This document shows, piece by piece, positions 2,896 to 44,171 of a stretch of 64,000 nucleotides of DNA (positions are counted from its first letter, which is position 1; each line of letters opens with the position of its first letter). This DNA comes from a virus. Its lineage: Duplodnaviria > Heunggongvirae > Uroviricota > Caudoviricetes. Under the pieces are notes generated by a model that worked only from the letters and a program-made list of their open reading frames with translations, did no database searches and was not told where the DNA came from. Position numbers and translations under genes: made by a program. The stretch spans positions 37,780 to 101,779 of the IMG/VR virus record IMGVR_UViG_3300042009_000020; one strand, 5' to 3'.

Positions 2896-2924
2896 TTGAC
2901 AAACAAATAAAAAACTAGTAGAAT
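2896..2924 (+). promoter_or_regulatory. sigma70-like promoter TTGACA-N17-TAGAAT
   Basis: exact -35 TTGACA (2896-2901), 17-nt spacer, TAGAAT (2919-2924); same class as other promoters in window. Confidence 0.5.
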
Positions 2925-2933
2925 GTATCAAGT

Positions 2934-2968
2934 TACAGGGGAGAGAAATCTTCCCTGTTTTTATTTCT
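2934..2968 (+). terminator. intrinsic terminator/attenuator hairpin
   Basis: ACAGGG..loop..CCCTGT stem followed by TTTTTATTT. Confidence 0.6.
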
Positions 2969-2979
2969 GGAGACAATAA

Positions 2980-3324
2980 ATGGCAAAGACATTTGGTTGG
3001 AAGGTTGAGAGAAGTGTTGACCCAACGAATAAGTTTCGTGTTATTGAAACACAGTTCGGTGACGGGTATAAACAGACATCAGCTGATGGTATCAACACTA
3101 AAGACGAACAGTATGTAATTACTGTCAACGCTTATAAAGTTGAAGCCCAAAAGATTATGGACTTCTTTGATGAACACCAAGGTTGGAAGAGTTTCTTCTG
3201 GACACCACCACTTGGTAAACTATCTTTGTTCACATGTGCTGATCCAAAGCAAACCGAACAAGGTGCTGGTCTGTACAAAATATCAGGTACATTTGTTAAG
3301 AGTTATTCAGCACCCTCATCCTAA
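2980..3324 (+). CDS. M: minor tail protein M (lambda gpM-like)
   Basis: 114 aa, position after tape measure and before L; FWTPP/Gly-rich features of gpM family; RBS GGAG. Confidence 0.75.
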   Translation: MAKTFGWKVERSVDPTNKFRVIETQFGDGYKQTSADGINTKDEQYVITVNAYKVEAQKIMDFFDEHQGWKSFFWTPPLGKLSLFTCADPKQTEQGAGLYKISGTFVKSYSAPSS

Positions 3325-3336
3325 TAAGGAGAAAAT

Positions 3337-4080: not shown

Positions 4081-4085
4081 TTATT

Positions 4086-4889: not shown

Positions 4890-5493
4890 GGTATGGATTG
4901 AAGTTCAACCCGGTGGTTACCTTAAAAAGTTTGGTAATCACAAATTCCTCGTAAACAATCCTGCTGAAGCAATTAAAGCAATGCTCATGCAAGTAAAGGG
5001 ATTCGAGGCAGCATTTAAAGGTGCTGAAAAGAAAGGTATCAAGTTTGCAGTTAGAACAGAGAAGCGAGATATTACTGCACCAGAGCAACTTCATATGGGT
5101 AAGCCAAAGATTCTCAAGCTTATCCCCAAGTATGCTGGTGGTAAGAATAGTGCTATGACATTCCTTGCTGTAGCTGTAATTATTGCAGCCACTGTGTTTA
5201 CAGCGGGTGCCGCTGGTTTTGGTGCTGGTGCATGGTTCGCAGCAGGTAGTACAAGTGCGGCTATCGCAACATCTATTGCAGTTAGTTTAGCAATTGGTGG
5301 TATTACACAAATGCTTAGTCCTCAACCTGATGGACTATCGACACGTACTGACCCAGATAACAAAGCATCTTATGCTTTCGGTGGTCCTGTAAACACTGCT
5401 GCACAAGGTGTTCCTGTTCCAGTGTTCTACGGATACAGGGAGGTCGGTGGTGCTGTCATCTCGGCTAGCGTTGTATCTGAAGATCAACAATAA
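4882..5493 (+). CDS. I: tail assembly protein I (lambda gpI-like)
   Basis: 203 aa between K and J, N-terminal globular part plus hydrophobic Ala/Gly-rich C-terminal region as in gpI. Confidence 0.7.
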   Translation: MSEVWIEVQPGGYLKKFGNHKFLVNNPAEAIKAMLMQVKGFEAAFKGAEKKGIKFAVRTEKRDITAPEQLHMGKPKILKLIPKYAGGKNSAMTFLAVAVIIAATVFTAGAAGFGAGAWFAAGSTSAAIATSIAVSLAIGGITQMLSPQPDGLSTRTDPDNKASYAFGGPVNTAAQGVPVPVFYGYREVGGAVISASVVSEDQQ

Positions 5494-8500: not shown

Positions 8501-11500
8501 AGGAAACAATCTTTACCAAGCCACACAAAGTGTACCACTCGACACATCTCCACCAAATGCTACATACTGGAAAAATGTGGGTGAGGTCATCACTGCATAT
8601 GATGCGTTGGCTTCTCAGGTATCCACTAACACCACTAACATCACACAACAGGGTAATACACTCACTACCCAAGCTGGTCAGTTAACAGCTTTGACAACCC
8701 GAGTAAATACTGCTGAAGGTAACATCACTGGTAACAGTACAGCGATCACCAACCTTCAAACAACAGTGACCACACAAGGGAACAGTATTACCTCTCAAGG
8801 GAGTTTGATTACCGGTCTTCGGTCTGATGTAACTAGTCTGCAAACCGGACAATCTGGTAATGCTTCAGCGATCACTTCGTTAACCACACGAGTTACAACC
8901 GCCGAAGGAACGATTACTTCACAAGGTCAGTCAATTACTTCACTCAACGCCACTGTTGGGACTTTACAAACTGACTTAAATGGTGTAGAATCTACCGTAC
9001 TAGGACAGGGAACGGCCATTAATGGATTGACAACTACGGTCACCCAGCAAGGCAACACCCTTACTTCCCACGGTACAAGTATCACAGCACTTGAGAACAG
9101 TGTTTCGGATATCCAAACAGATGTATCTGGATTGACAACCACTGTTACCGGTCAAGGTACTTCCATCACCAATTTGCAAAACACTGTAACTCAGCAAGGT
9201 AACACAATCACAGCTCAGGCTCAGGACATTACAACCCTGAAATCTGATGTGTTGATTGATAAGACTGATATCAGCGGGCTCAAGACTACAACGACAGCAC
9301 AAGGTACTGCGATTACAAACTTGCAGACGACTGTGACCTCCCAAGGGAACAGCATCACATCAAACAGCAACAGTATCACCAACCTGACCAGCGATCTTCA
9401 CTTCAATGAATTGGATGCTCTCTACGAAGGTAATGAAACTGATGCTCAAATTGCTGATGCATTGGTCATCTCAAAAGCTACAGCTTCCGCAACAGAATCT
9501 CTGACAACGACAGTAACTTCTCATGAAGGTATTATCACAGCACAAGGTCAATCAATTACAGACTTGAAGGCTGCTCTTGAAGATTCGGATGGTAATATTG
9601 TTGGTCAAGCTAGTGCAATCGAGAGTCTTAAAACCAGTGTCACTCAACAAGGTAATACAATCAACTCACAAGGTGCTAGCATTACCAGTCTGGATAACAG
9701 CTTGGCAACCACTAACACCAATGTGGATGCTGCCCAACAAGCAGCAACTGATGCCAATACATTAGCTGGTGGAAAGGGTAAAGTATTCTTCCAAGCTTCG
9801 GCTCCTGCTGTTGGTGAGCAATTAAGTCAGAACCTTTGGATTGATACTACCGGGAACGCAAACACGCCTAAACGCTGGAATGGCTCGGCATGGGTAGCTG
9901 TAACTGACAAGGTAGCGACTGACGCTGCAACAGCAGCTGCTAACGCACTTACTCAAGTAGCTACAAAGGCTGATGCTTCAGCAGTGACGGCATTGACAAC
10001 CCGAGTAACTAACGCAGAAGGAACGATTACTTCACAAGGCACAAGCATCACCAGCTTGAACAACAGCCTGACAGTCACTAACACTAACGTGACAGCAGCT
10101 CAGAACGCAGCTCAGGCTGCTAGTGATCTTGCTGGTATCAAAGGTGAAGTGATCTACGGAAGCACAGCACCAACAACTGCACAACGTCTGCCTCAAAACC
10201 TTTGGATTGATACCACAAGTGGAGCAAACACTCCGAAGAGATGGTTGACGAACGCTTGGGTAGTTGTAACTGATAAAGTGGCTACAGACGCAGCAGCCGC
10301 TGCTGCAAGTGCTTTGACACAAGTTGCAACCAAAGCTGAAGCTAGTGCAGTAACATCGTTAACAACTCGCGTGACAAGTGCAGAGGGAACGATTACTTCC
10401 CAAGGTACAAGCATTACCAACCTGAACAACAGTTTGACGACTACCAATACCAACGTTAGTGCTGCACAAACAGCAGCTCAAGCTGCCAGTGATCTTGCTG
10501 GTACTAAAGGTAAGGTTCTGGTACAAACTACAACACCTGTTACCGCTGATCAACTTCCACAGAACTTGTGGATTGACATCACCAGCAGCAACAACACTCC
10601 TAAGAGATGGAACGGAAGTGCGTGGGTTGTGGTAACTGACAAGGTTGCTACTGATGCAGCAGCAGCCGCTGCTAATGCTTTGAGTGTTGCCAATACAAAG
10701 GCTGATGCATCTGCACTTAATGCCTTGACTACACGGGTTACCTCTGTTGAAGGTGTCACCACTTCACAAGGTTCTAGTATCACCACGTTGACAAACAACC
10801 TCAGTACCACTAACACCAACGTTACAGCCGCTCAGGCAGCAGCAGACGCTGCTAACACTCTTGCTGGTGGAAAGGGTAAGGTGTTCTATGGAAGTACAGC
10901 CCCTGCTACAGCAGAGCGTTTGAGTCAGAACCTCTGGATTGATACAACTGGTGGTTCTAACACACCTAAAAGATGGGATGGTTCAGCATGGACTGCTGTA
11001 ACTGATAAAGTGGCTACAGATGCCGCCATTGCTGCTGCTAACGCTTTAAGTGTTGCTAACACCAAGGCTGATGCCTCTGCTGTGACAGCTCTGACAAGTC
11101 GTGTAACAACGGCTGAAGGTAGTATCAGTTCACAGGGTACAAGCATTACAACGCTGAACAACAGTCTGACAACCACTAACAACAATGTAACCGCTGCTCA
11201 GGCTGCTGCTCAGGCCGCATCTGACCAAGCCGGTGCTAAAGGTGAAGTGATCTATGGTAGTACTGCTCCAGCAGTTGAGAAACGTCTTCCACAGAACTTG
11301 TGGATCGACACCACTGGTAATGCAAACACTCCTAAACGTTGGTTGACAAACGCATGGGTTGTGGTAACCGATAAGGTAGCTACTGATGCTGCAACAGCAG
11401 CAGCTAACGCACTTGCTCAGGTTGCTCTCAAAGCAGATAGTACAGCACTCACAGCTTTGACAAACACTGTTACCCAACAAGGTACTGACATCTCAGCGAA

Positions 11501-14500
11501 CGCTGGTAACATCACCATACTCAATACGGAGGTTCATTTCCAAGAGTTGGATGAATTGTACGCTGGTAATGAAACAGACGCCCAGATTGCAGACGCATTG
11601 ATGATTGCAAAAGGTACTGCTTCTGCTAACGAGTCATTGACTTCGGAAGTTACACAGCAGGGTGATTTGATTAAGGCTCAGGCCGAAAGCATTACTGACC
11701 TTGCATCGTCGTTGTCCTCAGTTGATGGTGATGTTTCTGCTCAAGGTGTTGCGATTGAAAATCTGAAAACTGTCACAACAGCTCAAGGCAATACAATCAA
11801 CTCTCAGAGTACAAGTCTCACGTCGTTGACCAACTCGTTGACCGTTACTAACACCAATGTCACAGCTGCGCAAACCGCTGCTGATGCTGCAAACACGTTA
11901 GCCGGTGGTAAAGGTAAGGTTATCGTCCAGAACGCAGCACCTGATGTTGCAGACAGGTTGGCACAGAACCTCTGGATCGACACCACTAGTGGAGCGAACA
12001 CTCCTAAAAGATGGTTGACTAGTGCATGGGTTGCAGTGACAGACAAAGTAGCTACCGATGCAGCAGCCGCTGCGGCAAGTGCACTTAGTCAAGTTGCAAC
12101 TAAGGCTGAAGCCAGTGCATTGACTTCATTGACCACTCGTGTGACAAGTGCTGAAGGAACAATAACAACTCAAGGTCAATCAATTACAACCTTGAACAAC
12201 TCTCTAACTACAACTAACACTAATGTGACAGCCGCTCAGGCTGCTGCGGATGCAGCGAATACATTAGCTGGTGGAAAGGGTAAAGTTATTGTTCAAACCG
12301 CTGCTCCAGCAGTTGGTGATCGACTTGCTCAGAACTTGTGGATTGACATTACAGGTAATGCTAATACCCCGAAACGTTGGGATGGAAGTGCTTGGACTGC
12401 TGTTACCGATAAGGTAGCTACTGATGCAGCAGCAGCCGCTGCTAACGCATTGAGTGTTGCTAACACTAAAGCAGACGCTTCAGCTGTAACGGCTCTGACA
12501 AGTCGTGTAACTACTGTAGAAGGCACTGTAACAACTCAGGGTCAAAGTATTACAACTCTGAATAACAGTCTGACTACTACCAATACCAATGTCACTACTG
12601 CTCAGGCAGCAGCTGATGCCGCTAACACCCTTGCGGGTGGTAAAGGTAAGGTGATGGTTCAAAGTGCTGCACCGGCTGTCGGAGATAGACTTGCTCAAAA
12701 CCTTTGGATTGATACAACAGGTAACGCCAATACTCCAAAGAGATGGGACGGTAGCAACTGGACTGCTGTGACTGACAAAGTGGCAACAGATGCAGCAGCC
12801 GCTGCTGCTAACGCCTTGAGTGTTGCTAATACTAAAGCTGATTCGTCAGCGGTATCAAGTTTGACAACACGAGTTACAACTGCTGAAGGTTTGATCACAA
12901 GTCAAGGTTCAAGTATTACTTCGCTGAATAACAGTCTGACTACTACTAACACTAACGTGACAACAGCTCAAAACGCTGCACAAGCTGCTAGTGATTTGGC
13001 TGGTAGTAAAGGCAAAGTGTTCTATCAAACTGCTGAACCTGCTGTTGGTGAAAGACTGTCGCAAAACCTTTGGATAGACATCACTGGTGCTGCAAATACA
13101 CCTAAGCGGTGGAACGGCAGTGCATGGGCAGCTGTAACTGATAAAGTGGCTACTGATGCAGCTACAGCTGCTGCAAGTGCGTTGACACAAGTAGCAACTA
13201 AAGCGGATGCTTCGGCATTGACAGCCTTGACTAACACTGTGACCTCCCAAGGTACTAGTATTACAACCAACGCTAGCAATATCACCCTGCTCAATACTGA
13301 CGTTCACTTTCAAGAGTTGGATGAGTTGTATGTCGGTAATGAAACTGATGCTCAAATTGCTGATGCGTTGATGATCGCTAATGGTGCTGCTTCTGCCAAT
13401 GAGTCGTTGACTGCTGAAGTTACACAACAAGGGGATCTGCTCACGGCTCAGGCTGTAATGATCACAGACCTTTCGAGTGAACTTTCTAATGTTGACGGTG
13501 ATGTGGTTGCCCAAGGGACGGCTATTGAAAACCTGAAAACTGTAACAACAGCACAAGGTAATACAATCAATTCCCACGGTGTATCGATCACATCTCTCAC
13601 TAACCGTGTGACAAGCGCTGAAGGTAACATCACGGGTCAAGCTACTGCTCTATCTGCTCTGGATACAAGAGTAACATCAACCGAAGGTACAGTGACTTCC
13701 CAAGGCACTAGTATTACAAGTTTGACAAGCTCCCTCGCCACAACCAACACTAACGTCACAACAGCCCAGAACGCAGCCAACGCTGCGAATACATTGGCTG
13801 GTGGTAAGGGTAAGGTTCTGGTACAAACCACAACGCCAGTGACAGCTGATCAACTCGTACAGAACCTTTGGATAGACATCACTGGTAGTGCGAACACGCC
13901 AAAACGTTGGAATGGTTCAGCTTGGGTTGCCGTGACAGATAAGGTAGCTACTGATGCAGCAGCCGCCGCTGCTAACGCTCTCTCAGTAGCAAACACCAAA
14001 GCTGATGCTGGTGCTGTAACCACTTTGACAACTCGTGTAACCAACGCTGAAAACAGTATCACTGCCTCGGCAACGAAGCTTGATGGTGTCTACGCTCAAG
14101 TTAACCCTACACTTGCTGGTGACGATGTTGGTCTTGCTGGTTCTGATAGTTATATGGTTGGTGTCTGGTCTGAAACCTCTGCTCGTATTGAGGATGGTGT
14201 TGTTTTGGGTTCACGTGTTGATACTGTTCAAGTTTCTAGTGATCAGGCGTTGACACTGGCTGAAGCTAACACTGCTGCTGTTCAACAAGTGTCACAAGCA
14301 CAGGTTGATGCAGACGGTAGAGCAAGCGCAATGTGGTCTGTCAAGTTGCAAGTTAACCAGTTCGGTCAGTATGTTACAGCTGGTATTGGTCTTGGTATTG
14401 AGAACGGTCCTGCTGGTCTGCAAAGTACATTCTTGGTGAACGCTGATACATTCGCAATCACTAACGGTGTTGATGCAAACCTAAGTGCACCATTTGTAGT

Positions 14501-14753
14501 GAATGGTGGTCAAGTATTCATCAAAGACGCATTCATTGCCAACGGTAGTATTACAATGTTGAAGATTGGAGACACTCTGCAATCTGATGACTTTGTTGCC
14601 GGTATCCAAGGATGGAGGTTGACTAAAGCTGGTACATTTGAAATCAACGGTCATGTACCCGGACAAGGTACAATGGTTATGACTAACCGCTCTTTGAGAG
14701 TATATGACGTAAACAACGTCAAGCGTGTGCAACTTGGGGATCTATCGGAATGA
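5511..14753 (+). CDS. J: host specificity / central tail fibre protein J, massively repeat-expanded (3080 aa)
   Basis: N-terminus (GGKGGG..HTP..NLLSV) and first ~900 aa align with lambda gpJ incl. FN3 domain; then ~1800 aa of Thr/Ala/Ser-rich tandem repeats; distinct C-terminal domain. Confidence 0.9.
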   Translation: MLDYEIHGGKGGGDKPHTPVETPNNLLSVAYAKVLIAVAEGELAGVPTNQDIFLDGTPLANPDGSLNFGGVKWEWRSGTQDQTYIQGLPEVSTEYNVGVELKSTTPWVRNITKTELDGVRVTFQWPALLEQKSNGDTVGVSMDYKIQLSKDGGAFTDYKTYTISGKTNTTYERTHRIDLPKATTGWIIRAVKLTADTTSGTIQDTMTVKSVAEVVDVKQRYPNTALLYVEFDSRMFGGGSIPKVSVRTKGRVIRVPDNYDPVARTYSGVWSGAFKWAWSDNPAWVYHDIITQDRFGLGNKVSLNMVDKWALYEISQHCDVMVDNGYNVGVLQPRHTCNIYIQEKRDAWQVLRDIASIFNGMTYWNGNQFTAIADKQEPFNNAPVFSRSNVINGRFDYAAADDKSIYTSALVSYDEPENHYNTAVESTFETEQILRWGGDRQIEISAIGCTSRGEAQRRGKYALITNMYNRTVSFRTGLQGLNDEVMPGKLIHVVDPLIGGRPFTGRIKAAVGTVLTLDRTVDAVAGDIMYITKSDGVSEGRTISAVAGNIVTLQVAYTELPKPNAVWYLEAADLKSQLFRVTKITSPEESVYEIEGVEYNDSKYAAVDTGARLEPRPISVVPPNIQQPPTNVNIISQTYVEQMMSVNTMVISWNQTQNAVGYEVQWKVENGDWVNAGTTGALSVTVKGIYTGQYVARVRAINAFDIKSIWVSSALTTLNGKVGLPPALTSLSVEPLVFGMKLNWTFPVGAEDTARTEIMYSPTQFFASATKLGDFAYPQTSHSINGLKAGQTFYFWGRLVDRTGNIGPYFPLTTQNGVMGLSSTDVAEYEEYFIDMINESALGQQLGAKIDKIEIIEADLDLVEIDLDLVKTDVDQIKTDVVQLEVEFDTAIDKVNTNVNWIESQIAGVELQLKNDLVITQGELQTNLDELQVDLEAVDQILADALVTTKKDVDDIKEDVVGLNTTIDTLQDQVDGITDALEYNPNRTYAAGEATRVGNNLYQATQSVPLDTSPPNATYWKNVGEVITAYDALASQVSTNTTNITQQGNTLTTQAGQLTALTTRVNTAEGNITGNSTAITNLQTTVTTQGNSITSQGSLITGLRSDVTSLQTGQSGNASAITSLTTRVTTAEGTITSQGQSITSLNATVGTLQTDLNGVESTVLGQGTAINGLTTTVTQQGNTLTSHGTSITALENSVSDIQTDVSGLTTTVTGQGTSITNLQNTVTQQGNTITAQAQDITTLKSDVLIDKTDISGLKTTTTAQGTAITNLQTTVTSQGNSITSNSNSITNLTSDLHFNELDALYEGNETDAQIADALVISKATASATESLTTTVTSHEGIITAQGQSITDLKAALEDSDGNIVGQASAIESLKTSVTQQGNTINSQGASITSLDNSLATTNTNVDAAQQAATDANTLAGGKGKVFFQASAPAVGEQLSQNLWIDTTGNANTPKRWNGSAWVAVTDKVATDAATAAANALTQVATKADASAVTALTTRVTNAEGTITSQGTSITSLNNSLTVTNTNVTAAQNAAQAASDLAGIKGEVIYGSTAPTTAQRLPQNLWIDTTSGANTPKRWLTNAWVVVTDKVATDAAAAAASALTQVATKAEASAVTSLTTRVTSAEGTITSQGTSITNLNNSLTTTNTNVSAAQTAAQAASDLAGTKGKVLVQTTTPVTADQLPQNLWIDITSSNNTPKRWNGSAWVVVTDKVATDAAAAAANALSVANTKADASALNALTTRVTSVEGVTTSQGSSITTLTNNLSTTNTNVTAAQAAADAANTLAGGKGKVFYGSTAPATAERLSQNLWIDTTGGSNTPKRWDGSAWTAVTDKVATDAAIAAANALSVANTKADASAVTALTSRVTTAEGSISSQGTSITTLNNSLTTTNNNVTAAQAAAQAASDQAGAKGEVIYGSTAPAVEKRLPQNLWIDTTGNANTPKRWLTNAWVVVTDKVATDAATAAANALAQVALKADSTALTALTNTVTQQGTDISANAGNITILNTEVHFQELDELYAGNETDAQIADALMIAKGTASANESLTSEVTQQGDLIKAQAESITDLASSLSSVDGDVSAQGVAIENLKTVTTAQGNTINSQSTSLTSLTNSLTVTNTNVTAAQTAADAANTLAGGKGKVIVQNAAPDVADRLAQNLWIDTTSGANTPKRWLTSAWVAVTDKVATDAAAAAASALSQVATKAEASALTSLTTRVTSAEGTITTQGQSITTLNNSLTTTNTNVTAAQAAADAANTLAGGKGKVIVQTAAPAVGDRLAQNLWIDITGNANTPKRWDGSAWTAVTDKVATDAAAAAANALSVANTKADASAVTALTSRVTTVEGTVTTQGQSITTLNNSLTTTNTNVTTAQAAADAANTLAGGKGKVMVQSAAPAVGDRLAQNLWIDTTGNANTPKRWDGSNWTAVTDKVATDAAAAAANALSVANTKADSSAVSSLTTRVTTAEGLITSQGSSITSLNNSLTTTNTNVTTAQNAAQAASDLAGSKGKVFYQTAEPAVGERLSQNLWIDITGAANTPKRWNGSAWAAVTDKVATDAATAAASALTQVATKADASALTALTNTVTSQGTSITTNASNITLLNTDVHFQELDELYVGNETDAQIADALMIANGAASANESLTAEVTQQGDLLTAQAVMITDLSSELSNVDGDVVAQGTAIENLKTVTTAQGNTINSHGVSITSLTNRVTSAEGNITGQATALSALDTRVTSTEGTVTSQGTSITSLTSSLATTNTNVTTAQNAANAANTLAGGKGKVLVQTTTPVTADQLVQNLWIDITGSANTPKRWNGSAWVAVTDKVATDAAAAAANALSVANTKADAGAVTTLTTRVTNAENSITASATKLDGVYAQVNPTLAGDDVGLAGSDSYMVGVWSETSARIEDGVVLGSRVDTVQVSSDQALTLAEANTAAVQQVSQAQVDADGRASAMWSVKLQVNQFGQYVTAGIGLGIENGPAGLQSTFLVNADTFAITNGVDANLSAPFVVNGGQVFIKDAFIANGSITMLKIGDTLQSDDFVAGIQGWRLTKAGTFEINGHVPGQGTMVMTNRSLRVYDVNNVKRVQLGDLSE
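8630..14060. repeat. hierarchical in-frame tandem repeats inside J
   Basis: ~10 copies of a 363-369 bp unit (NLWIDTTGNANTPKRW.GSAWV.VTDKVATDAA..) at 9833,10196,10559,10928,11291,11958,12327,12696,13062,13863, grouped in three super-repeats, each preceded by a ~300-bp variant segment (HF.ELD.LY.GNETDAQIADAL); shorter QG.SIT.L heptad-like repeats from ~8640. Confidence 0.9.
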
Positions 14754-34117: not shown

Positions 34118-34359
34118 AATTCGATTTGACAAAGATTGACAAGCAAATGATGAAAGACATCGATGCTCTTCCACAAGGTAATACTGAACTCAAAGGTGTT
34201 GTCTGGATGCGTGATGATTATCTGTCAATGCGAGGTATGGCGTTTTGTGGTGATCGTCGCACATATGATTTACTTGAAAGAATCGATGACTTGAAAGAAC
34301 AACTTCGATCAGATGGTTATGAATTCAATTGTGATAAATGGTATGAGGGGGAAGTTTGA
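34114..34359 (+). CDS. hypothetical protein
   Basis: 81 aa, overlapping start/stop with neighbours. Confidence 0.45.
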   Translation: MKFDLTKIDKQMMKDIDALPQGNTELKGVVWMRDDYLSMRGMAFCGDRRTYDLLERIDDLKEQLRSDGYEFNCDKWYEGEV

Positions 34360-36266
34360 GTCTTATTGAAAAGGTAATGAAGCACTATCATCCTGACTAT
34401 CAAGGTGAGGATAAAATTCTGTGCATGTTCCATAAAGAAAGAAGTCCTTCATTTAACGTATATCACCATCAAAATACTTATTACTGCTTCGGGTGTGGTG
34501 CCGGAAGTACAGTAATTGATTTTGTTGCGGACAGTGAAGGTCTGGACGTTAATGTTGAGTTCAAGAAAGCTCGTGACATTACATTGGGTATTCTTGGTTT
34601 AACAAATGAGCAATTTCAAGAGGAGAGAAAGAAAGTGACAGATGCGCAGGTGATGACAAACGATTGTCTTCCGGCGATGACTGATGAGGAAGTTAAGGCT
34701 TTCATCCAAAGTGCTCACCGGGAAATCAATGGTCGTAAAGTATCTGGTTATTCAGGTATGGGTTATCGTGGTATCAAAGATGAATATCTGAAGTTCTTTG
34801 GTCACCTAACTAAGAAAGATGATGATGGTAAAGTAATCAGCCGTCACTATCCTGAGACAAACACAAAAGGTAAGTTGGCTGGTTATAAGTGCCGCAATCA
34901 CCCTAAAGACTTCCGTTACGGTAATGTTGGTAGTACTGGTGGTAAGAACCAACTAAGTGGTCAGATTAAATACTCTGGTCACAACAAATATATTCTCATT
35001 GTTGGTGGTGAAGAGGACAAAGTTGCTGCATATCAGATGTTCGAAGAGAACCGTGCTGGTAAGGGTAACATTGCTCCTATTCATGTGGTGAGTCCAACTT
35101 GCGGTGAGAACAGTGCAGTTAAACAGATTGCTGCCCAATACTCGTTCTTCGACATGTATGATCAAATCATTATCGGTATGGATAATGACGAAGCTGGACA
35201 TAAAGCAGCTAAAGCAATTGCTGAAGTTCTCCCGAAAGAGAAAGTTAAGGTAGTTGTCTGGACAGGTAAAGACGCCAACAAGATGTTGGAAGATGGTTTG
35301 GCTGGTGTATTTGTTCGTGACTTCTATAATGCCAAACCGCTGATTGCTTCTGGTATCAAGGAAAGCACTAGCAGTATGGACTCTGTTCGTGAAGAACTGA
35401 TGCGTCCACGTATTCCACTCCCACCAGAATGGAAAGATGTTCAAGATGCAATGAAGGGTGGTATTCGTCAAGGTAGTATTGTGAATATCATTGGTGATAC
35501 TTCGGTTGGTAAGTCTACTCACGTTAACGGACTCAACTACTTCTGGATGTTTAATGCACCCCAGAAAGTTGGTGTTGTAAGTTTGGAGATGACCGAAGGT
35601 CAATACACACTTGACTTGTTGTCTATTCACCTTGAGAAGAACTTGGCGTGGATTGGTGAAGGTGCCGATATTCTTGAGTATCTGGATCGTCCTGAAGTTC
35701 AAGCGCTGTATGACAACTTACTTGTTGATGATTCTGGTCAACCACGTTATTCTATTCTGGATGAACGAGATGGTGACCTTAAACTTCTTGAGCGTCAAAT
35801 TGAGAAACTGATTCACCAATATGGTTGTAAGATTATTGTTATCGACGTTCTGACTGACATTCTTCGCGGTGCTAACGGTGATATGCAAGAAGACCATATG
35901 CGTTGGCAGAAACAGATTGTCAAGACAGGTGTAACAATTGTAAACATTCTGCACACACGTAAACCAGTTAACTCTGATGGATCGTGGAGGAAAGCATCGG
36001 AATATGATGCGTTTGGTAGTAGTACATTTGTTCAATCTGCTGCTTATAACATTGTGATTAGTCGTGATAAAATGAACCCCGACCCAATCATCCGCAACTT
36101 GACGCATGTTGATATGCCGAAAGCGAGGGGAGGAGAGACTGGCGAGATTATGCAACTTATCTATGATGTCGAAACACGCCAAGTAATGAACTACAATAAC
36201 TGGCTCAATAAACAGACAAGTATTGATCAGGCGTTGAATCCGAAAGTACCAGATGTAGAGTTTTAA
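34356..36266 (+). CDS. bifunctional DNA primase/helicase (T7 gp4-like)
   Basis: N-terminal Zn-binding domain (CMFHKERSPS..YYCFGCGAGS), TOPRIM-like middle (IIIGMDNDEAGHKAA), DnaB-family helicase with Walker A GDTSVGKST. Confidence 0.85.
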   Translation: MSLIEKVMKHYHPDYQGEDKILCMFHKERSPSFNVYHHQNTYYCFGCGAGSTVIDFVADSEGLDVNVEFKKARDITLGILGLTNEQFQEERKKVTDAQVMTNDCLPAMTDEEVKAFIQSAHREINGRKVSGYSGMGYRGIKDEYLKFFGHLTKKDDDGKVISRHYPETNTKGKLAGYKCRNHPKDFRYGNVGSTGGKNQLSGQIKYSGHNKYILIVGGEEDKVAAYQMFEENRAGKGNIAPIHVVSPTCGENSAVKQIAAQYSFFDMYDQIIIGMDNDEAGHKAAKAIAEVLPKEKVKVVVWTGKDANKMLEDGLAGVFVRDFYNAKPLIASGIKESTSSMDSVREELMRPRIPLPPEWKDVQDAMKGGIRQGSIVNIIGDTSVGKSTHVNGLNYFWMFNAPQKVGVVSLEMTEGQYTLDLLSIHLEKNLAWIGEGADILEYLDRPEVQALYDNLLVDDSGQPRYSILDERDGDLKLLERQIEKLIHQYGCKIIVIDVLTDILRGANGDMQEDHMRWQKQIVKTGVTIVNILHTRKPVNSDGSWRKASEYDAFGSSTFVQSAAYNIVISRDKMNPDPIIRNLTHVDMPKARGGETGEIMQLIYDVETRQVMNYNNWLNKQTSIDQALNPKVPDVEF

Positions 36267-36306
36267 TCTAAGGGCTTCGGCCCTTTCGTTTTATTAGGAG
36301 AGAGTA

Positions 36307-38028
36307 ATGGAAATTGGTCTGCTAGGTGACGGTAAGACAGAATATTATAAAAACGATATTTGCTACGACTTGGAAACTTACCCTGACACTTTCACATTTG
36401 CCGCTGTCTTTGCTAGCGGTAAAGGAATGCGTGTTTATGAAATCAGTGACCGAAAGAATGATACTGAGGAAATGCTTGAGTTCATGCGTAATATTGCGAC
36501 AGGTGGATATCGGATGGTTGGTTTTAACAACTTAGGTTTCGATTACCCTGTTTTGCACTACATCCTTGAAAAGAGTAAGGCAGCACGCAAAGAAGGTAAA
36601 ACTTTGCAAATCACAGCATCTGAAATCTATAGTAAGGTTTGTAAGATGTTTGAACAGATGAAGTTCAACAAATTCGGAACCGCTGTTCGTTCTGATGAAG
36701 TAATGTTGAAGCAAGTTGACCTGTTCAAGATAAAACATTTCGATAATCACGCAAAGTCTACCTCTTTAAAAATGCTTGAATTCAACATGCGTTCTAAGAA
36801 CATTGAAGACTTGCCGTTTCCTGTTGGTATGCGTTTGAATGATGAACAGAGAGATGTTCTGATTGAATACAACAAACACGATGTTATGGAAACATTGAAA
36901 TTCTATTACAGGATTTTTGATGAAGTCAAAATGCGTCATGAACTGTCTGGTCAGTTCGGCTTTGACTGTACCAACTTCAATGATACGAAAATCGGCAAAG
37001 AGTTGTTCGTTAATCGTTTGGAATCTGCTAAGCCCGGTTGTTGCTATAAGATTGAGAAGAAAGGACCAAGGATGGTTCGGCAAATGCAACAAACAAAACG
37101 CAGTAGTATTAATCTTGGTGAGTGTGTTCTTCCGTACGTTCAATTCAATCGACCTGAGTTTAAAGCGATTCATCAATGGTTCCTTAATAAGACAATTGTT
37201 GAGACAAAAGGGTCACTCACAGATATTGAAGAACATGAGCTTGGTGATGTTGCTAAGTATGCAAAACTTCGTGTTAAAATGAAAAAGATGAATTGCCCTA
37301 TTGATGGGGCAAAGAATAAGCGCTATGTGCCAACCGAAGAACAAATCCTTGAGATGATGAAAGAACATCCCTTGGGTTGGGTTGAGGCTGTTGAACTCAA
37401 GAGTCCAAAGGGTGCCGCCAGCTATTGGTTCTGTTGGAATATTGCAGAAACCCTTAATGTTGTGATAAATGGATTCCAGTATGATTATGGTACTGGTGGA
37501 ATCCACGGTGCTAAACAAGGTGTCCATTCTAGCAATGACGAATACCAGATTTACAGCTATGATATCGCGTCAATGTACCCTAACGTCTCAATTCAGAACA
37601 AACTGTTCCCTGAGCATCTGGACATTCTGTTCTGTTCTGTTTATGAAGGGTTGTATCGTGAGCGTAAGAGTTATGATAAAAAAGATTCAAGAAACAAGGC
37701 GCTGAAATTGGCTCTAAACGGAACATATGGTGCATCTAATGACCAGTACAGTCCTATGTATGATCCTAAATTCACAATGAGTATCACAGTGAATGGTCAG
37801 TTGTTGTTGTCAATGTTGATTGATGATATGATTGAACAACTTGGTGCTGATGTGCTCATGTGCAACACTGATGGCTTTGAATTCATTGCTAAAAAATCTG
37901 ATGCTGACATGGTTGCACAAATCGTTAAATCATGGGAGAATGTGACCAAGCTTGAGATGGAAGGTGAGCTTTACAAGAAAATGCTCATCCGAGATGTAAA
38001 CAATTATCTTGCAATTAAACAGAAATAA
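36307..38028 (+). CDS. DNA polymerase, family B (3'-5' exo + pol motifs A/B/C), truncated after KxY-like motif
   Basis: ExoI YDLET; motif A YDIASMYPN, motif B KLALNGTYGA, motif C CNTDGF; ends 50 aa after motif C, immediately before a homing endonuclease gene. Confidence 0.65.
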   Translation: MEIGLLGDGKTEYYKNDICYDLETYPDTFTFAAVFASGKGMRVYEISDRKNDTEEMLEFMRNIATGGYRMVGFNNLGFDYPVLHYILEKSKAARKEGKTLQITASEIYSKVCKMFEQMKFNKFGTAVRSDEVMLKQVDLFKIKHFDNHAKSTSLKMLEFNMRSKNIEDLPFPVGMRLNDEQRDVLIEYNKHDVMETLKFYYRIFDEVKMRHELSGQFGFDCTNFNDTKIGKELFVNRLESAKPGCCYKIEKKGPRMVRQMQQTKRSSINLGECVLPYVQFNRPEFKAIHQWFLNKTIVETKGSLTDIEEHELGDVAKYAKLRVKMKKMNCPIDGAKNKRYVPTEEQILEMMKEHPLGWVEAVELKSPKGAASYWFCWNIAETLNVVINGFQYDYGTGGIHGAKQGVHSSNDEYQIYSYDIASMYPNVSIQNKLFPEHLDILFCSVYEGLYRERKSYDKKDSRNKALKLALNGTYGASNDQYSPMYDPKFTMSITVNGQLLLSMLIDDMIEQLGADVLMCNTDGFEFIAKKSDADMVAQIVKSWENVTKLEMEGELYKKMLIRDVNNYLAIKQK

Positions 38029-38042
38029 ACAATGAGGTTGTC

Positions 38043-38966
38043 ATGACGTTGACTAGAATGATTTACAGTGACAACCTCTTGTCACAAGACAAGATTGGTA
38101 TTTACAAGATCGAAAACCTTGTGAACGGTAAGGTCTATGTCGGTAAAACTGTTAATTTCCGAAGTCGCTACAACACCTACAACTCAGCATTCAGAACTAA
38201 TCGGACGACTCATATCAACCGATATCTAATGAGTTCTTTGTCAAAGTATGGCATTAGCAATTTCAAATTCAGCAAGCTTGAATCTTGCTCACTTTCTGAG
38301 ACTGGGGATCGAGAACTTTTCTGGATGGATCAGTTGGACTCGTGTTCTCGCAACGCTGGTTACAATCTGAGACGCGACAGTTCTACCGGCATGGAAACTC
38401 ATGAGGACACACGTGCTCACCTTTCTAGCAAAATTATCCAGCAATATGCAGATGGAAAGCGTGATAAAAGAAAGATCAGTGAATTCTTTAAAGGGTTTTG
38501 GTCGAATCCTGTTGTCAAAGACGAAATGGCGAAGCGTGTTGCTGAAGTTAACCGTTCTTATTTCATTCAGAGAGACAAGACCACATCTGACATTGTTTGT
38601 GTTTGGGATGGTATAAACCAGATCAAAGCAGCAAATCCACAATGGAAATGGCAGAATATTTATGCTGCGTGCAATGGAAGCAAACCATCATACCTTGGCT
38701 TCAAATGGGAACGCTCATCTGAAATCCCAGAAGGTTGTGAGCATCTTGTCCACAGAGGTGAGAATGTTCTGTTCAAGGATGTGGATAAAACACATTTACC
38801 TCGAACCAACTCACTGGTGTACACAGTGCATCATGGTGAATTTAAGGGTGAATACACTGGTGTTGAACTTTCTAAAATTTATGCGGCCATGTACAATGCA
38901 TTCTGCAAAGCAAAGTGTAATGAAATTTACTGGAAACGTGGTAAAACCAAAATAACTAGGGGATAA
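38043..38966 (+). CDS. GIY-YIG homing endonuclease
   Basis: GIYKIENLVNGKVYVGKT..R..Y motif; inserted between two polymerase-associated ORFs. Confidence 0.8.
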   Translation: MTLTRMIYSDNLLSQDKIGIYKIENLVNGKVYVGKTVNFRSRYNTYNSAFRTNRTTHINRYLMSSLSKYGISNFKFSKLESCSLSETGDRELFWMDQLDSCSRNAGYNLRRDSSTGMETHEDTRAHLSSKIIQQYADGKRDKRKISEFFKGFWSNPVVKDEMAKRVAEVNRSYFIQRDKTTSDIVCVWDGINQIKAANPQWKWQNIYAACNGSKPSYLGFKWERSSEIPEGCEHLVHRGENVLFKDVDKTHLPRTNSLVYTVHHGEFKGEYTGVELSKIYAAMYNAFCKAKCNEIYWKRGKTKITRG

Positions 38967-38974
38967 AAGGCATC

Positions 38975-39511
38975 ATGAAACATCAAGAGATTCTGGATGC
39001 TTTGCGTGAAACGGTTAGCAGTGGTTCGATCAAGACAAAAGGAGCATATGAGTGTCTACCATATGATGAATTGGGTTGGCACAAGAACCATTCGTCTATG
39101 GTCATTCAGTTGGCGGTTGCTGCTCATTTGCTTGAGCTTTGTGACTATAAGACATTTATTATGAATCATAAAGACCCTTTTGATTTCTGTCTTAGAACAA
39201 AGGTTCCAAGGTCTAGTCGTCTTGTCATGGTTTTTAAAGACAGTTTTGGTGTTGATGAAGAGGTGGTGGTTCAGAATATCTGCCGGTATGTTCCCGTGAA
39301 GGATGGTGGTAAGTTGGTGAAAATAATGCCACCGCTACCCGGTGGTACAGATGAGAGACGACTGAGCATCGACAGCAAGTATGACGTGAGAGAATGCAAT
39401 GACATGGATGACTTTGATTGGAATATTGATTATGATTACTATTTTGACAAAGCCGAAAAGCTTGTAAATGCTATCATCGGTGATGACTCGGACGAAGGTG
39501 AAGAAGATTGA
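38975..39511 (+). CDS. hypothetical protein; candidate C-terminal (thumb) fragment of the split DNA polymerase
   Basis: 178 aa, acidic tail; position right after HEG insertion; no motif match I can verify. Confidence 0.35.
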   Translation: MKHQEILDALRETVSSGSIKTKGAYECLPYDELGWHKNHSSMVIQLAVAAHLLELCDYKTFIMNHKDPFDFCLRTKVPRSSRLVMVFKDSFGVDEEVVVQNICRYVPVKDGGKLVKIMPPLPGGTDERRLSIDSKYDVRECNDMDDFDWNIDYDYYFDKAEKLVNAIIGDDSDEGEED

Positions 39512-39520
39512 AAATAGTGG

Positions 39521-39548
39521 TTGACAGACGATCAGGATCACGTAGAAT
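39521..39548 (+). promoter_or_regulatory. promoter TTGACA-N16-TAGAAT
   Basis: consensus -35; ORF-track ATG 39521 lies inside it, real start at 39575. Confidence 0.6.
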
Positions 39549-39574
39549 GGTCGTCATCAACAAGGAGATACGAA

Positions 39575-39745
39575 ATGAACACACATGGTTTGATCTTGAT
39601 TACTGTTGCATTGGTCATCTGGTCAACGGCTGTTCAGTACACAATACCAAGCAGGGAGGGTAGGGTGGTTATTGGTATACTAGGTGCAGCCATCATTGGT
39701 GGTGGTTTCGCTCTCAAAGGCATCACATTACTTGGAGGTTATTGA
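39575..39745 (+). CDS. small membrane protein
   Basis: 56 aa, 2 TMDs, AAGGAGA SD. Confidence 0.45.
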   Translation: MNTHGLILITVALVIWSTAVQYTIPSREGRVVIGILGAAIIGGGFALKGITLLGGY

Positions 39746-39748
39746 AAA

Positions 39749-40006
39749 ATGAGTCAACTTGCAAATCTGGTAGATCGAAAACTTTCTGTTTGCTCACAAA
39801 TCGAGTTTGGTGATATCCTGCAAGGTATCGACAGTGAGAAGGATGCCCTTGATTTGGTAATGGCGCTCGACCTTGCTCAAGAAGATGTTGGCTTCACAAT
39901 CAAGCTGATCAATATGTTGTTCAAGTCCCTGCGTGTGGATCTGGACAAGCAAGAAGCTAAAGACGTGATCAAAGAACTGAAACAACTCAACAAGAGTATT
40001 GCTTAA
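39749..40006 (+). CDS. hypothetical protein
   Basis: 85 aa. Confidence 0.45.
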   Translation: MSQLANLVDRKLSVCSQIEFGDILQGIDSEKDALDLVMALDLAQEDVGFTIKLINMLFKSLRVDLDKQEAKDVIKELKQLNKSIA

Positions 40007-40341
40007 TGAATGCAAAATTGAAGGGTAACGTGGTAACGATCACAATTGACGGAATGAATAATGTATTCCGTAACGTGCATGAACTTGGTGTGGAAGCTTT
40101 CTCTGTTGCAAGAGTGAGTAAAGCTGTGTATGATCTGTCATTCCCGATGAACAAAGATCATCATCGAATCTTTGCTGGTTTGATTCATCGTCAAAATGCT
40201 GAAAACAAATTGAAACAAAAGGTTGACACCAAAGGTGGTAAGCCTGATAATACGCCACCAGACGGAACTCCACCACAAGGTGGTACACCGGGCTCAACCA
40301 AGCAAAAAGAATTTGTAAACACAATGGCAATCGCTGCATAA
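40006..40341 (+). CDS. hypothetical protein
   Basis: 111 aa, Pro/Gly-rich C-terminus. Confidence 0.45.
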   Translation: MNAKLKGNVVTITIDGMNNVFRNVHELGVEAFSVARVSKAVYDLSFPMNKDHHRIFAGLIHRQNAENKLKQKVDTKGGKPDNTPPDGTPPQGGTPGSTKQKEFVNTMAIAA

Positions 40342-40401
40342 AATCGTTTGACACACAATAAGCACAAGCGTATACTGCGCACACATTCAAAGGAGAGTAA
40401 T

Positions 40402-40671
40402 ATGACAACTCGTAACGAACCATCCATCGGTAATCTGGTAACTGGTCTGTTCACTAAAGCAAAAGTATCCCATACCGTGCTGGTTGAGGAAGCTCTTGAT
40501 GCATTCACCAAAGCAGAACAAAAGATGTCGGCTGCTATCGACACAATCAATATCCATATCGATGCAGACAATCGTGAGATTCAAGAAATCAACGAGCGTA
40601 TCGAATCGTCTAACAAGTCGAAAGATCGCATCACTCGTGTTCTGGATCGTGTTAAAGCACTAACTGCATAA
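40402..40671 (+). CDS. hypothetical protein
   Basis: AAGGAGAG SD before ATG 40402. Confidence 0.45.
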   Translation: MTTRNEPSIGNLVTGLFTKAKVSHTVLVEEALDAFTKAEQKMSAAIDTINIHIDADNREIQEINERIESSNKSKDRITRVLDRVKALTA

Positions 40672-42399: not shown

Positions 42400-42686
42400 T
42401 GAAGTATCTTGGTAAGTTTACACTTTCTGTAGTCAGTATTGCATTGTACATCTTTGCACTTAGCACTCTGTATACATGGTTTGCAATTCCAGCAGGAGCA
42501 CCGTTGATTGGTACTGCTAACATATACGGTCTCGCAATGATTGTTAGTTACATCACAATCAAAAACACGGATCTACAACAAGCTCACGAAAAGGGTAAGC
42601 TCAGTAATACCAATGTAGCTGGTCTTCGGATTGTGATGAGTTTGTTTGTTCTTCTCATTGGTTACATTACAACCTTGTTCATGTAA
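42399..42686 (+). CDS. membrane protein (3 TMDs)
   Basis: TAATG overlap; hydrophobic. Confidence 0.45.
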   Translation: MKYLGKFTLSVVSIALYIFALSTLYTWFAIPAGAPLIGTANIYGLAMIVSYITIKNTDLQQAHEKGKLSNTNVAGLRIVMSLFVLLIGYITTLFM

Positions 42687-42713
42687 AAAGATTCAAGAAG
42701 TGGTTATTACTTG

Positions 42714-42742
42714 TTGACATCAGTGAGCCACTTCTGTATAAT
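42714..42742 (+). promoter_or_regulatory. perfect consensus promoter TTGACA-N17-TATAAT
   Basis: both hexamers exact, optimal spacer. Confidence 0.75.
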
Positions 42743-42837
42743 GGGCGTTCATGTTGAGTGAAGAGCATGAACAACCGCAAAACATATCTGCTGCCATCAT
42801 ACAGCAAAATGAATAATCCGCAAAAGGAAAAACATAC

Positions 42838-43914
42838 ATGTCTAAGAAGTTCGTATTTAACGCCCAAGTCCCACAATCCAATCCAGAAACTGCCAACGTA
42901 GACTTTGATGCTCTGTCGAAGCATGTTGTCGAAGCAGTTGGTTGTGCTGACAAACCAGAAGCACTCATTGGTATTGTTTCCGGTGTTATTGACTTGGGTC
43001 TGCAAGCACAAGAAGACGCCAAGATGGAGTGGAAAGGTACTGATGCTGAGAAAGCTGAAGTAGAAGCAAAAGCAGCTCGTGGTGAATCGAAAGAATACTT
43101 TGAAGTTGTTCCACATGGTCAGAACAATGTACCAACCCTGTGCAAACGCTGGCCTGTAAAAGCACAACGCTGTGTTGCCTTGAACGTTGACTTCCCTGAC
43201 ACGTTGGTTAATCGTGGTCAGTTCTTTGATGAAGATAAAGTTGGTGAACCACTTCCATTCCGTGGGTTGTTGAACAACGAGTTCGGTCTGAAAGGTGTCG
43301 GTAAAGTAGTTGGTAAACCATACAGTCTGCGTGAACAACGTAATGACGATGGCACTTGGGGCTTTAAGAACAACACTATCTTGTTCAAACTGGCTCAGGC
43401 AACTAACCAACTGGATGCACAGAGTAACTTCAAACCAGCAATGTTGGGTAACTTGATTGGTGAGGCTGCAATGTTCAACGTTCATGTCTACTTGAATGAA
43501 CATGCTGGTAAACATTATCTGAATGAGAAACTTGCATTCAATGGTCCTGTACCAAAAGCAATGCAGAAGATGGTTCCTGTGTTGGATGAGAAGTTCATGC
43601 ACGTTGTCAACTTCAAAGGTGAACAGGATCTGGAAGTGTTGAAGACTCTTCGTCAGTCGGTTATCAACACCATGAAAATGGCTGAAGACTTCGAAGGTTC
43701 TGATGTTCAAAAGGCTCTGATCGAAATTGGTAAGATCAAAGTTGGTGAGACTTCTGGTACTTCTGGTGAAACTAAACCACAAGTTGCTCAACAGGCAAAA
43801 CCTGCGCAGCAAGCAGCTCCGGCTGAAACTATCAACTTCGACGCATTCGATGACGATATTCCATTTGGTTATATCGGAATGCAAGAAGGTCGCATGTTTT
43901 TGCACATGATCTAA
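42838..43914 (+). CDS. abundant early protein, candidate ssDNA-binding/annealing protein with SSB-like acidic tail motif
   Basis: 358 aa behind a perfect promoter; near C-terminus FDAFDDDIPF equals E. coli SSB tip DFDDDIPF, followed by 15 more residues. Confidence 0.4.
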   Translation: MSKKFVFNAQVPQSNPETANVDFDALSKHVVEAVGCADKPEALIGIVSGVIDLGLQAQEDAKMEWKGTDAEKAEVEAKAARGESKEYFEVVPHGQNNVPTLCKRWPVKAQRCVALNVDFPDTLVNRGQFFDEDKVGEPLPFRGLLNNEFGLKGVGKVVGKPYSLREQRNDDGTWGFKNNTILFKLAQATNQLDAQSNFKPAMLGNLIGEAAMFNVHVYLNEHAGKHYLNEKLAFNGPVPKAMQKMVPVLDEKFMHVVNFKGEQDLEVLKTLRQSVINTMKMAEDFEGSDVQKALIEIGKIKVGETSGTSGETKPQVAQQAKPAQQAAPAETINFDAFDDDIPFGYIGMQEGRMFLHMI

Positions 43915-43958
43915 CTGAAAACAGCACAAGGATGTGCAACTTACAAAAGGATTAGAAA

Positions 43959-44171
43959 TTGAAAGTAATCCAAGAACAGACATTCGAAGTTAGAAGTATG
44001 TTAAGTGGAGAGGTGAAGACCCGTATTCGCTCTGACAGTACTTGGTACTCCTCAGAATACTACATCCCTAAGATGGACCGATGGAATGTCTCTGGTTTGT
44101 TCCTCTCGCTTTCCGAGTGTGAGGTTAGACAGAAGGCTTTCATCACAATGCACAATAAAATAATGGTTTAG
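43959..44171 (+). CDS. hypothetical protein
   Basis: 70 aa. Confidence 0.4.
   Translation: MKVIQEQTFEVRSMLSGEVKTRIRSDSTWYSSEYYIPKMDRWNVSGLFLSLSECEVRQKAFITMHNKIMV

Follow-up and report, generated by a model that had tools for sequence, protein, structure and literature searches.

Evidence for a two-cistron family-B DNA polymerase with a free-standing GIY-YIG homing endonuclease gene in its gap in a phiPMW-related phage

In the T4-related Aeromonas phages 25 and 44RR, gene 43 is divided into 43A and 43B, which are separated by a stretch between the cistrons that is not translated (IC-UTS), with or without the homing endonuclease gene (HEG) seg43(25) (Petrov, Ratnayaka and Karam 2010, as related in the review of Edgell et al. 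2010, PMC2988022). As recounted in that review, gp43A and gp43B of phage 25 co-purify and are active, and the reviewers suspected that the HEG had invaded a gene 43 that was already split. Here, we analyzed a similar arrangement in a 64,000-nucleotide (nt) stretch of a Caudoviricetes virus (IMG/VR record IMGVR_UViG_3300042009_000020, positions 37,780 to 101,779), which at its full length is called the window. It contains two cistrons, polN and polC, which appear to encode one family-B DNA polymerase, and a GIY-YIG HEG located between them. The likeness to gene 43 of phage 25 lies in a replicative polymerase of family B encoded in two cistrons with a seg-type HEG between them, the relative 44RR being HEG-less. 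Phages 25 and 44RR are T4-like and have an IC-UTS, whereas the window belongs to a ~107-kb phiPMW-related phage with a tape-measure gene and a very divergent PolB, without an IC-UTS or an extra group I intron. A further difference is that the window-type split was found in hundreds of metagenomic relatives with mosaic signs of lateral spread. The comparison with phages 25 and 44RR concerns the gene layout.

In Aeh1, nrdA is split by the HNH endonuclease mobE, and activity depends on short terminal tails, which originated along with the insertion (Friedrich et al. 2007; Crona et al. 2011, PMC3045599). The ribosome-binding site of mobE is held in an RNA hairpin (Gibb and Edgell 2009, as cited in PMC2988022). 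The window shares with this system a replication-related essential gene cut by a free-standing HEG. Moreover, an N-terminal leader of polC is the obvious analogue of the Aeh1 tails, and the start of the window HEG also lies within an RNA hairpin. The enzyme and the HEG family are different, and only polC has a substantial tail in the window split. The two-gene PolB3 of Methanobacteriales and the split-intein PolB of Nanoarchaeum equitans were attributed to inteins, by erratic excision or trans-splicing (Makarova et al. 2014, PMC4104785). These enzymes also consist of a large N-terminal and a small C-terminal polypeptide, but they are intein-related and differ in origin from the split of the window, which shows no intein remnants and in which a free-standing HEG acts instead. 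HEG-bearing group I introns are present in the DNA polymerase genes of the phages SPO1/SP82 and Bastille. In these genes, and in Flavobacterium phage Fpv1, the polymerase of which is homologous to that of the window, a GIY-YIG or HNH HEG interrupts the polymerase gene at a conserved motif; there splicing takes place at the RNA level, whereas the window has no intron core.

Split polymerases are mentioned in passing in several phage genome papers. In the case of Pseudomonas phage phiPMW, the split is entered in RefSeq as two 'DNA polymerase' CDSs without comment, and the phiPMW genome paper does not mention it. The class of HEG-associated genes in pieces is already known from T4-like phages. 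Within the literature surveyed, we did not find a description of the family-level picture presented here, with a recurrent split at a hairpin tip, a conserved leader, several HEG lineages per slot and recombinant patches. This family context provides a natural, sequence-rich system for two questions left open in the T4-phage literature (PMC2988022, PMC3045599): how split replication enzymes reassemble, and whether a mobile element supplies a 'repair kit' along with the damage that it does to a gene. The hairpin-tip split occurs in hundreds of uncultured phages, and gene callers and polB-based phylogenies will mis-handle such loci.

Two halves of a family-B polymerase

The polN, HEG and polC genes are three abutting open reading frames (ORFs) in three different frames, with a total of 22 non-coding nt in the spacers. 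The features of the locus are given below in window positions; loci are cited by L-numbers and proteins or protein clusters by P-numbers.

36307..38028, + strand: polN, N-terminal cistron of the putative split family-B DNA polymerase, 573 amino acids (aa), frame 1 (ORF, PHROG, motifs)
37996..38013, + strand: codons for VNNYLA, the KxY-equivalent strand and first hairpin strand, with the tip as predicted break point (alignments of intact homologues; AlphaFold2 (AF2) model of P0242)
38029..38042, + strand: polN-HEG spacer, 14 nt, with Shine-Dalgarno GAGG (38034-38037) for the HEG (read from the sequence)
38034..38078, + strand: predicted RNA hairpin in which GAGGTTGTCA (38034-38043) pairs with TGACAACCTC (38069-38078) (RNA fold)
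38043..38966, + strand: free-standing GIY-YIG HEG, 307 aa, frame 3 (ORF, PF01541, PHROG homing-endonuclease families)
38967..38974, + strand: HEG-polC spacer, 8 nt, with weak Shine-Dalgarno AAGG (38968-38971) for polC (read from the sequence)
38975..39511, + strand: polC, C-terminal cistron, 178 aa, frame 2, with leader helix, second hairpin strand (IKTKGAY) and thumb region
38975..39022, + strand: polC leader MKHQEILDALRETVSS, predicted helix and candidate assembly element, without counterpart in intact polymerases
37759..39511, + strand: split-lineage patch (approximate), from polN aa ~485 to the polC end, HEG included (sliding-window and flank identities)

We consider polN and polC to be a two-cistron family-B DNA polymerase that has a free-standing GIY-YIG HEG in the gap and acquired its split junction by recombination, and we assign to this reading a probability of about 0.85. 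The exonuclease motifs of polN are located at aa 20-24 (ExoI, YDLET), 73-80 (ExoII, FNNLGFDY) and 188-196 (ExoIII, YNKHDVMET), and the polymerase motifs at aa 419-426 (A, DIASMYPN), 467-475 (B, KLALNGTYG) and 519-525 (C, CNTDGFE). They are followed by the KxY-like VNNYLA at aa 564-569, and the protein ends with ...VNNYLAIKQK*, its stop lying 48 aa past motif C, 4 aa past VNNYLA and 6 aa past the Y of NNY. The polN protein spans the N-terminal and 3'-5' exonuclease region, the palm, the fingers and the first strand of the KxY hairpin. A reading of this DNA made from the sequence only had already described a 573-aa ORF with ExoI and motifs A, B and C which stops ~50 aa after motif C at a KxY-like NNY, and the motif positions bear this description out. 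The same reading had proposed the 178-aa ORF as a source of the missing thumb. This was confirmed with phrog_1252 (DNA polymerase, 663 positions), in which polN corresponds to positions 49-509 (E=4.7e-141) and polC to positions 510-658 (E=2.7e-26), with exact abutment, and by alignment with the intact polymerases of Pseudomonas phage vB_PpS_SYP and P0242. The two proteins align end to end with intact homologues of 728-750 aa, and polN shows 77% identity with aa 1-~575 of P0242, an intact protein of 737 aa. Both states are present in the closest cultured relatives, two Pseudomonas phages of different host species: the polymerase of vB_PpS_SYP is intact (728 aa), and that of phiPMW is split at the same point as in the window, its gap being filled by two ORFs of 69 aa.

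At the junction, the intact enzymes have the sequence NNYI[SA]xxx-(S/G)G-xVKxKGAY. The AF2 model of intact P0242 (predicted local distance difference test, pLDDT, 85.8) contains a beta-hairpin with strands at residues 570-575 and 580-583 and a turn at 576-579, and the model places the break of the window polymerase at this turn, the tip of the hairpin after the KxY (NNY) motif. A Foldseek search with the same model, which represents a homologue and not the split protein, returned archaeal PolB, Pol alpha and the African swine fever virus polymerase at E~1e-14 and a probability of 1.00. Family-B polymerases were the only matches of a profile of 47 intact homologues against the PDB (E=9e-6), and all weak PDB sequence matches of polN belonged to the same family. 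The subfamily is very divergent: Pfam PF00136 gave 15.1 bits against a cutoff of 23, which is below the threshold because these enzymes are too distant from the Pfam model, and DNA_pol_B_exo2 gave a weak score of 23.4 bits, slightly below the cutoff of 24. The motif C of the window (37861-37881) has NTDG for DTDS, and NNY stands for KxY at 37996-38013. These deviations do not represent decay, because both are invariant in the 47 intact homologues. The comparison indicates that the first motif-C aspartate is dispensable or replaced throughout this PolB subfamily.

The free-standing polC proteins have 35 invariant columns. In both halves of the split relatives, pN (nonsynonymous differences) is ~0.2 and pS (synonymous differences) is ~0.8, the latter saturated. 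Due to the saturation of dS between the window and its relatives, dN/dS was limited to the sole pair for which it could be computed, L004 and phiPMW, and amounted to 0.11-0.125. Purifying selection acts on both polymerase halves. Positions 35327-39549 of the window (4223 nt) recur with 100% identity in an independent assembly, Logan SRR18728772 (L003), and the arrangement is therefore neither a frameshift nor an artefact of one assembly. A contig of 107,314 bp from the Joint Genome Institute (JGI) carries proteins identical to those of this locus, with polN and polC both labelled 'hypothetical protein'. The JGI gene call for the HEG (protein P0121; window 38391-38966) comprises only the C-terminal 191 aa from Met117, and the GIY-YIG domain was missed.

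The sequence-only reading had left two ways of expression, as two polypeptides or after splicing of a group I intron carrying the HEG. In the second case, the HEG would lie inside a self-splicing intron, and the spliced mRNA would encode a single full-length polymerase. HEG-bearing group I introns are frequent in phage polymerase genes, and the homologous polB of Fpv1 has one within motif A. However, a permissive Rfam scan of 35500-40500 revealed no group I intron (RF00028) at E<=10, whereas in the Fpv1 polB, used as a positive control, Intron_gpI was found on both sides of the HEG with 45.8 bits (E=4.5e-10) and 22.3 bits; the control demonstrates that introns of this type are detectable by the scan in polymerase genes of the family. 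The 14 and 8 nt outside the ORFs are too little for a P3-P9 core. Moreover, the homology of polN reaches the stop codon, and that of polC begins behind a leader which is conserved, codes for protein and has an ATG of its own. In L085, the split is identical with zero sequence between the cistrons, the polN stop overlapping the polC start (ATGA), and therefore two polypeptides are the sole possibility in that phage. Splicing of an intron is, consequently, very improbable for the window, and of the two ways expression as two polypeptides is retained.

Joining of the halves after translation by a split intein, with the HEG located between the intein halves as in a 'fractured gene', is an arrangement reported from metagenomes (Dassa et al. 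2009, PMC2677866). Against it, no Hint/intein domain was detected by Pfam in the window proteins, the tails of ~3 aa (polN) and 16 aa (polC) contrast with the ~100 and ~35 aa of split-intein halves, and the terminal HN or nucleophile signature is absent; we regard it as improbable in the extreme. Inactivation of the polymerase by the insertion, with a decaying pseudogene left behind and another polymerase used by the phage, has no direct support in an analysis that covers 64 kb of the 107-kb contig. It is also highly improbable given that both halves retain all catalytic motifs, that purifying selection is seen in both (pN~0.2 against pS~0.8), that the invariant polC columns are maintained in the free-standing proteins, and that the split form is present in more than 100 protein clusters and in the cultured phage phiPMW.

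The Fpv1 locus (L096, NC_031914) was also inspected. At 2174-5241 it contains the homologous polB interrupted within motif A by a 221-aa related GIY-YIG gene, and the group I intron halves are located at 3257-3417 and 4126-4158, on either side of this gene. RefSeq lists two 'DNA polymerase' CDSs together with a 'homing endonuclease' for this locus and leaves the intron unannotated. The same arrangement is common to 29 Flavobacterium phage records.

The homing endonuclease and the contents of the gap

The HEG matches PF01541 with 36.6 bits (cutoff 22.6). A free-standing GIY-YIG gene had been expected from the sequence only, at a distance of 15 nt from polN; the gene was confirmed and the distance, with a trivial difference, is 14 nt. 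Its catalytic domain (aa 17-110) matches that of I-TevI (1LN0/1MK0, E=1.2e-5), and the remaining C-terminal ~200 aa are presumed to be the DNA-binding region. The residues Y21, Y32, R42, H57, E91 and N108 align with Y6, Y17, R27, H40, E75 and N90 of I-TevI, and judging from this alignment the catalytic residues are intact.

The nearest homologues of the HEG show 44-53% identity over 220-283 aa and are free-standing HEGs located directly 3' of polymerase genes in every locus examined. In L090-L092, the polymerase concerned is an intact 730-aa PolB; in L086-L089 and L093/L094, it is PolA. The GIY-YIG genes from other polymerase gaps are 35-46% identical to the window HEG in the catalytic domain only. 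By these values, the window HEG belongs to a GIY-YIG lineage other than that of the gap genes of split relatives. HEGs of both lineages were found directly 3' of intact PolB or PolA genes, where they abut or overlap the stop codon (L097 10216-10845; L090-L092 ~4001-4768; L086-L089 and L093-L094). In L086/L087, a 640-aa PolA-like ORF, an HEG and a 119-aa ORF might represent another split polymerase.

The HEG has its own frame, distinct from those of polN and polC, and GAGG is located 5 nt before its ATG. The fold of 38022-38090 has a minimum free energy of -19.7 kcal/mol (z=-3.15), and 0 of 200 shuffled sequences were as stable. Its stem is a 10-bp perfect inverted repeat in which the Shine-Dalgarno sequence and the AUG pair with HEG codons 9-12. 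The hairpin may act as a brake on translation of the HEG. At the ribosome-binding site of polC, the local hairpin did not reach significance (z=-1.83).

The contents of the gap were surveyed in leader-type split loci. A GIY-YIG gene of ~215 aa (type 1) was found in L010, L033, L045 and L052 and, frameshifted, in L009, and an HNH_3 gene in L004, L007/L008 and L030. Small ORFs of 64-71 aa are present in phiPMW, L004 and L006, and the gap of L085 is empty. Because the same junction holds HNH genes, other GIY-YIG genes, small ORFs or nothing, the split junction appears to be older and more widely spread than the window HEG, which is probably a later occupant of an existing gap. The small ORFs (L001 5700-6115, which are phiPMW gp197 and gp198; L004 5296-5511; L006 6779-6973) are mutually similar and occur alone or beside an HNH gene. 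They belong to no Pfam family and have no similarity to HEGs. The idea that gp197 and gp198 are decayed GIY-YIG remnants was rejected, as they show no similarity to that gene; they are small paralogous ORFs.

It was also considered whether the present GIY-YIG HEG itself made the split by insertion into an intact polB. The HEG fills the gap exactly, its relatives are polymerase-associated, and transposition-like HEG insertions which split genes have been documented, for example in Aeh1 nrdA/mobE, according to the review cited above (PMC2988022). On the other side, relatives in which the gap is empty or is occupied by HNH genes or small ORFs have junction sequences homologous to the AIK.K tail of polN and to the polC leader. 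The lineage of the HEG also differs, with 35-46% identity (catalytic domain) to the gap GIY-YIGs against 44-53% over 220-283 aa to the HEGs downstream of intact polymerases, and turnover of cargo in a pre-existing gap is more parsimonious. We therefore regard creation of the split by this HEG as unlikely. The earlier suggestion of a gene split by HEG invasion is accordingly kept as to the split gene, and the part that names this HEG as its maker probably does not hold.

Leader, spread and mosaic structure of the junction

The search for polC homologues covered 5.8 billion proteins and gave 239 polC-like clusters, mostly free-standing. Among the 120 best homologues, 98 are free-standing proteins of less than 200 aa (143-185 aa). 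Nearly all free-standing homologues with the K.KG motif (89 of 94) carry a leader of 10-26 aa (mode 16) with the consensus M.HEEEV..[LI]R.LI[KS]S, after which the sequence continues as GKVKTKG. The alignments show that intact homologues have no leader. In the AF2 model of polC, residues 3-16 form a helix, with a pLDDT of ~90 over the first 10 residues, and this predicted helix makes the leader a candidate assembly element. A notion, obtained by eye, that the leader is a degenerate duplicate of the upstream strand (IRD... motif) concerns a stretch too short for testing and is not claimed.

The polN tail comprises 0-8 extra residues among split proteins, and polC alone has a substantial tail. 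In most split relatives, the last polN codons ATT-AAG-GA(G/A) (I-K-E) contain an AAGGAG-like Shine-Dalgarno sequence of the next cistron, as at the polN 3' ends of L085 (5700-5725), L007 (6470-6495) and L052 (3500-3525). In L085, polC starts 6 nt after this sequence, within the ATGA overlap. The embedded Shine-Dalgarno sequence may explain the conserved ...AIKE ending. The window is an exception: its tail is AIKQK, and the spacer provides a GAGG outside polN.

Split polymerases form a minority. Among the 120 nearest polN homologues, about 10 are of split length, and 12 of the 79 scorable IMG/VR loci are split (11 distinct, as one is phiPMW again). A second split point was noticed in this polymerase family, ~12-20 aa before motif B, where free-standing C-terminal fragments of 220-300 aa begin with ...KSQPKGSAANAALKLALNG. 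Examples are P0051, P0061, P0075, P0086, P0093-P0096 and others, and L029 (3106-3579 and upstream). This point differs from the Fpv1 site in motif A.

The identity of the window to its relatives changes along the locus. Most 50-aa segments of polN aa 1-384 are 79-96% identical to intact P0242 (68% for aa 248-297), and the values for split relatives are 49-89%. From aa 485 to 629, which is ~55 aa past the junction, the identity is 78-79% with split L085 vs 43-56% with P0242. The flanking genes are 75-85% identical to those of L097, the contig of P0242 (primase/helicase 83%, downstream ORFs 75-81%), vs 28-69% to those of split relatives. For polC the relation is reversed, with 54% to L097 vs 64-68% to split relatives. 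L097 also has a type-1 GIY-YIG gene directly downstream of its intact polB. According to these identities, a bounded ~1.75-kb patch of the split lineage is set in a backbone most closely related to a phage with an intact polB, and the window most likely acquired the split junction through recombination.

Other loci show the same kind of change. In a tree of the polN part, the split loci were scattered among intact ones, and their monophyly was recovered in 0 of 100 bootstraps; the groups {L052, L062-intact} and {L009, L045, L028-intact} had a support of 92% and 94%, respectively. L008 is 91-99% identical at the nt level to intact L023 through the helicase and polN, until ~60 nt before the polN stop. 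Past this switch, the HEG and the whole polC are 86-94% identical to split L007 vs 65-71% to L023. L052 is similar to intact L062 before and after the junction and departs from it in the last ~8 polN codons and in KTK (vs KLK) just after the leader. The conversion tract ranges in length from a few codons in L052 to all of polC in L008 and the window. What is observed is a presence/absence polymorphism at one site with recombinant flanks. A single recently spread cassette comprising all free-standing polC genes was considered and rejected, because polC is overall about as divergent as polN among split loci.

A broader hypothesis, which we hold tentatively and place somewhat below even odds, is that the split junction is a mobile module consisting of the polN tail codons, the stop, the HEG slot, the start codon and the ~16-aa leader helix. 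Polymerase-associated HEGs of at least three lineages would propagate this module and repeatedly turn phage polB genes that were intact into genes for polymerases of two subunits. In that case, the leader would be an element-derived assembly domain that neutralises the damage, as a generalised form of the Aeh1 NrdA tails, and fission of family-B polymerases would favour the hairpin after KxY in many phage clades.

With regard to mechanism, polN and polC would be translated as separate polypeptides, probably from one replication-operon transcript, and neither RNA nor protein splicing would play a part. They would reassemble non-covalently, most simply by re-pairing of the two hairpin strands, with the leader helix aiding the assembly, by analogy with the Aeh1 NrdA tails (PMC3045599) and, as described in the review, gp43A/gp43B of phage 25 (PMC2988022). 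The HEG would be a selfish passenger, and a hairpin would enclose the ribosome-binding site that it has for itself. Its protein presumably cuts the HEG-less polB of co-infecting relatives, after which repair would copy the HEG together with its flanks; recombination would be HEG-driven rather than ordinary. The codons for NSYIAIYKGGDVKRKG in the intact P0242/L097 polB are a candidate target region. The split junction, that is the polN tail with the stop and the polC start with the leader, would predate the HEG and act as a transferable module.

Several points weigh against the two-cistron reading with a recombined junction, or against parts of its mechanism. At least 20 distant clusters are split at the hairpin tip without a leader; thus, the leader is not strictly required for a split there. 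These fragments, obtained in an exhaustive search of 50%-identity representatives, have 140-220 aa, less than 50% identity and the start MK[VI]KRKGAYEY (P0365, P0370-P0373, P0376, P0381, P0386, P0390, P0394, P0395, P0408, P0414, P0421, P0436, P0441, P0453, P0486, P0490). As they start at the same hairpin tip, the site is a recurrent fission point. The closest relative of the window has ~77% aa identity, and the crossover is placed only within aa ~385-485 (~100 codons). The direction of transfer is suggested by parsimony, and ordinary homologous recombination without HEG cleavage would yield the same mosaic. Association of the subunits, polymerase activity and HEG cleavage are all things that we infer and, the AF2 models being of single chains, so are the polN-polC interface and the role of the leader. 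Finally, conservation of the hairpin that sequesters the ribosome-binding site was not seen among the HEG starts of ten other loci, and the Shine-Dalgarno sequence of polC is weak.

Genomic setting and further observations

One further feature adjoins the locus:

34356..36266, + strand: primase/helicase gene directly upstream of polN, in the same orientation (Pfam, PHROG)

This gene has the Pfam domains Zn_ribbon_DnaG, Toprim and DnaB_C and matches phrog_239 (E=4.6e-143). The synteny of primase/helicase and polymerase was also found in phiPMW, SYP, L004, L085 and L097, and the gene probably shares a replication operon with polN. The gene content of the window is that of a phage genome, including a tape-measure protein, a 3080-aa tail fibre, RNA ligase, helicases, exonuclease, thymidylate synthase and ribonucleotide reductase. 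A megablast search of the region against 50,697 phage records gave zero matches, which makes the phage new at the DNA level. The promoter and terminator scans gave generic consensus matches only and were not used as evidence; the best promoter-like site is located at 39521-39548, after polC, and a terminator-like hairpin at 36270-36285, before polN.

The ORF of the 3080-aa tail-fibre/host-specificity protein (5511-14753; central tail fibre J-like) contains many internal repeated stretches and, near aa 2657-2756, a glycerophosphodiester-phosphodiesterase-like segment. Two long ORFs overlap on opposite strands at 42679-43983 (-) and 42838-43914 (+). The minus-strand ORF (434 aa), which has no PHROG match, is probably spurious, and the plus-strand ORF (358 aa) has homologues that are 81% identical in L097 and 48-61% identical in other relatives.

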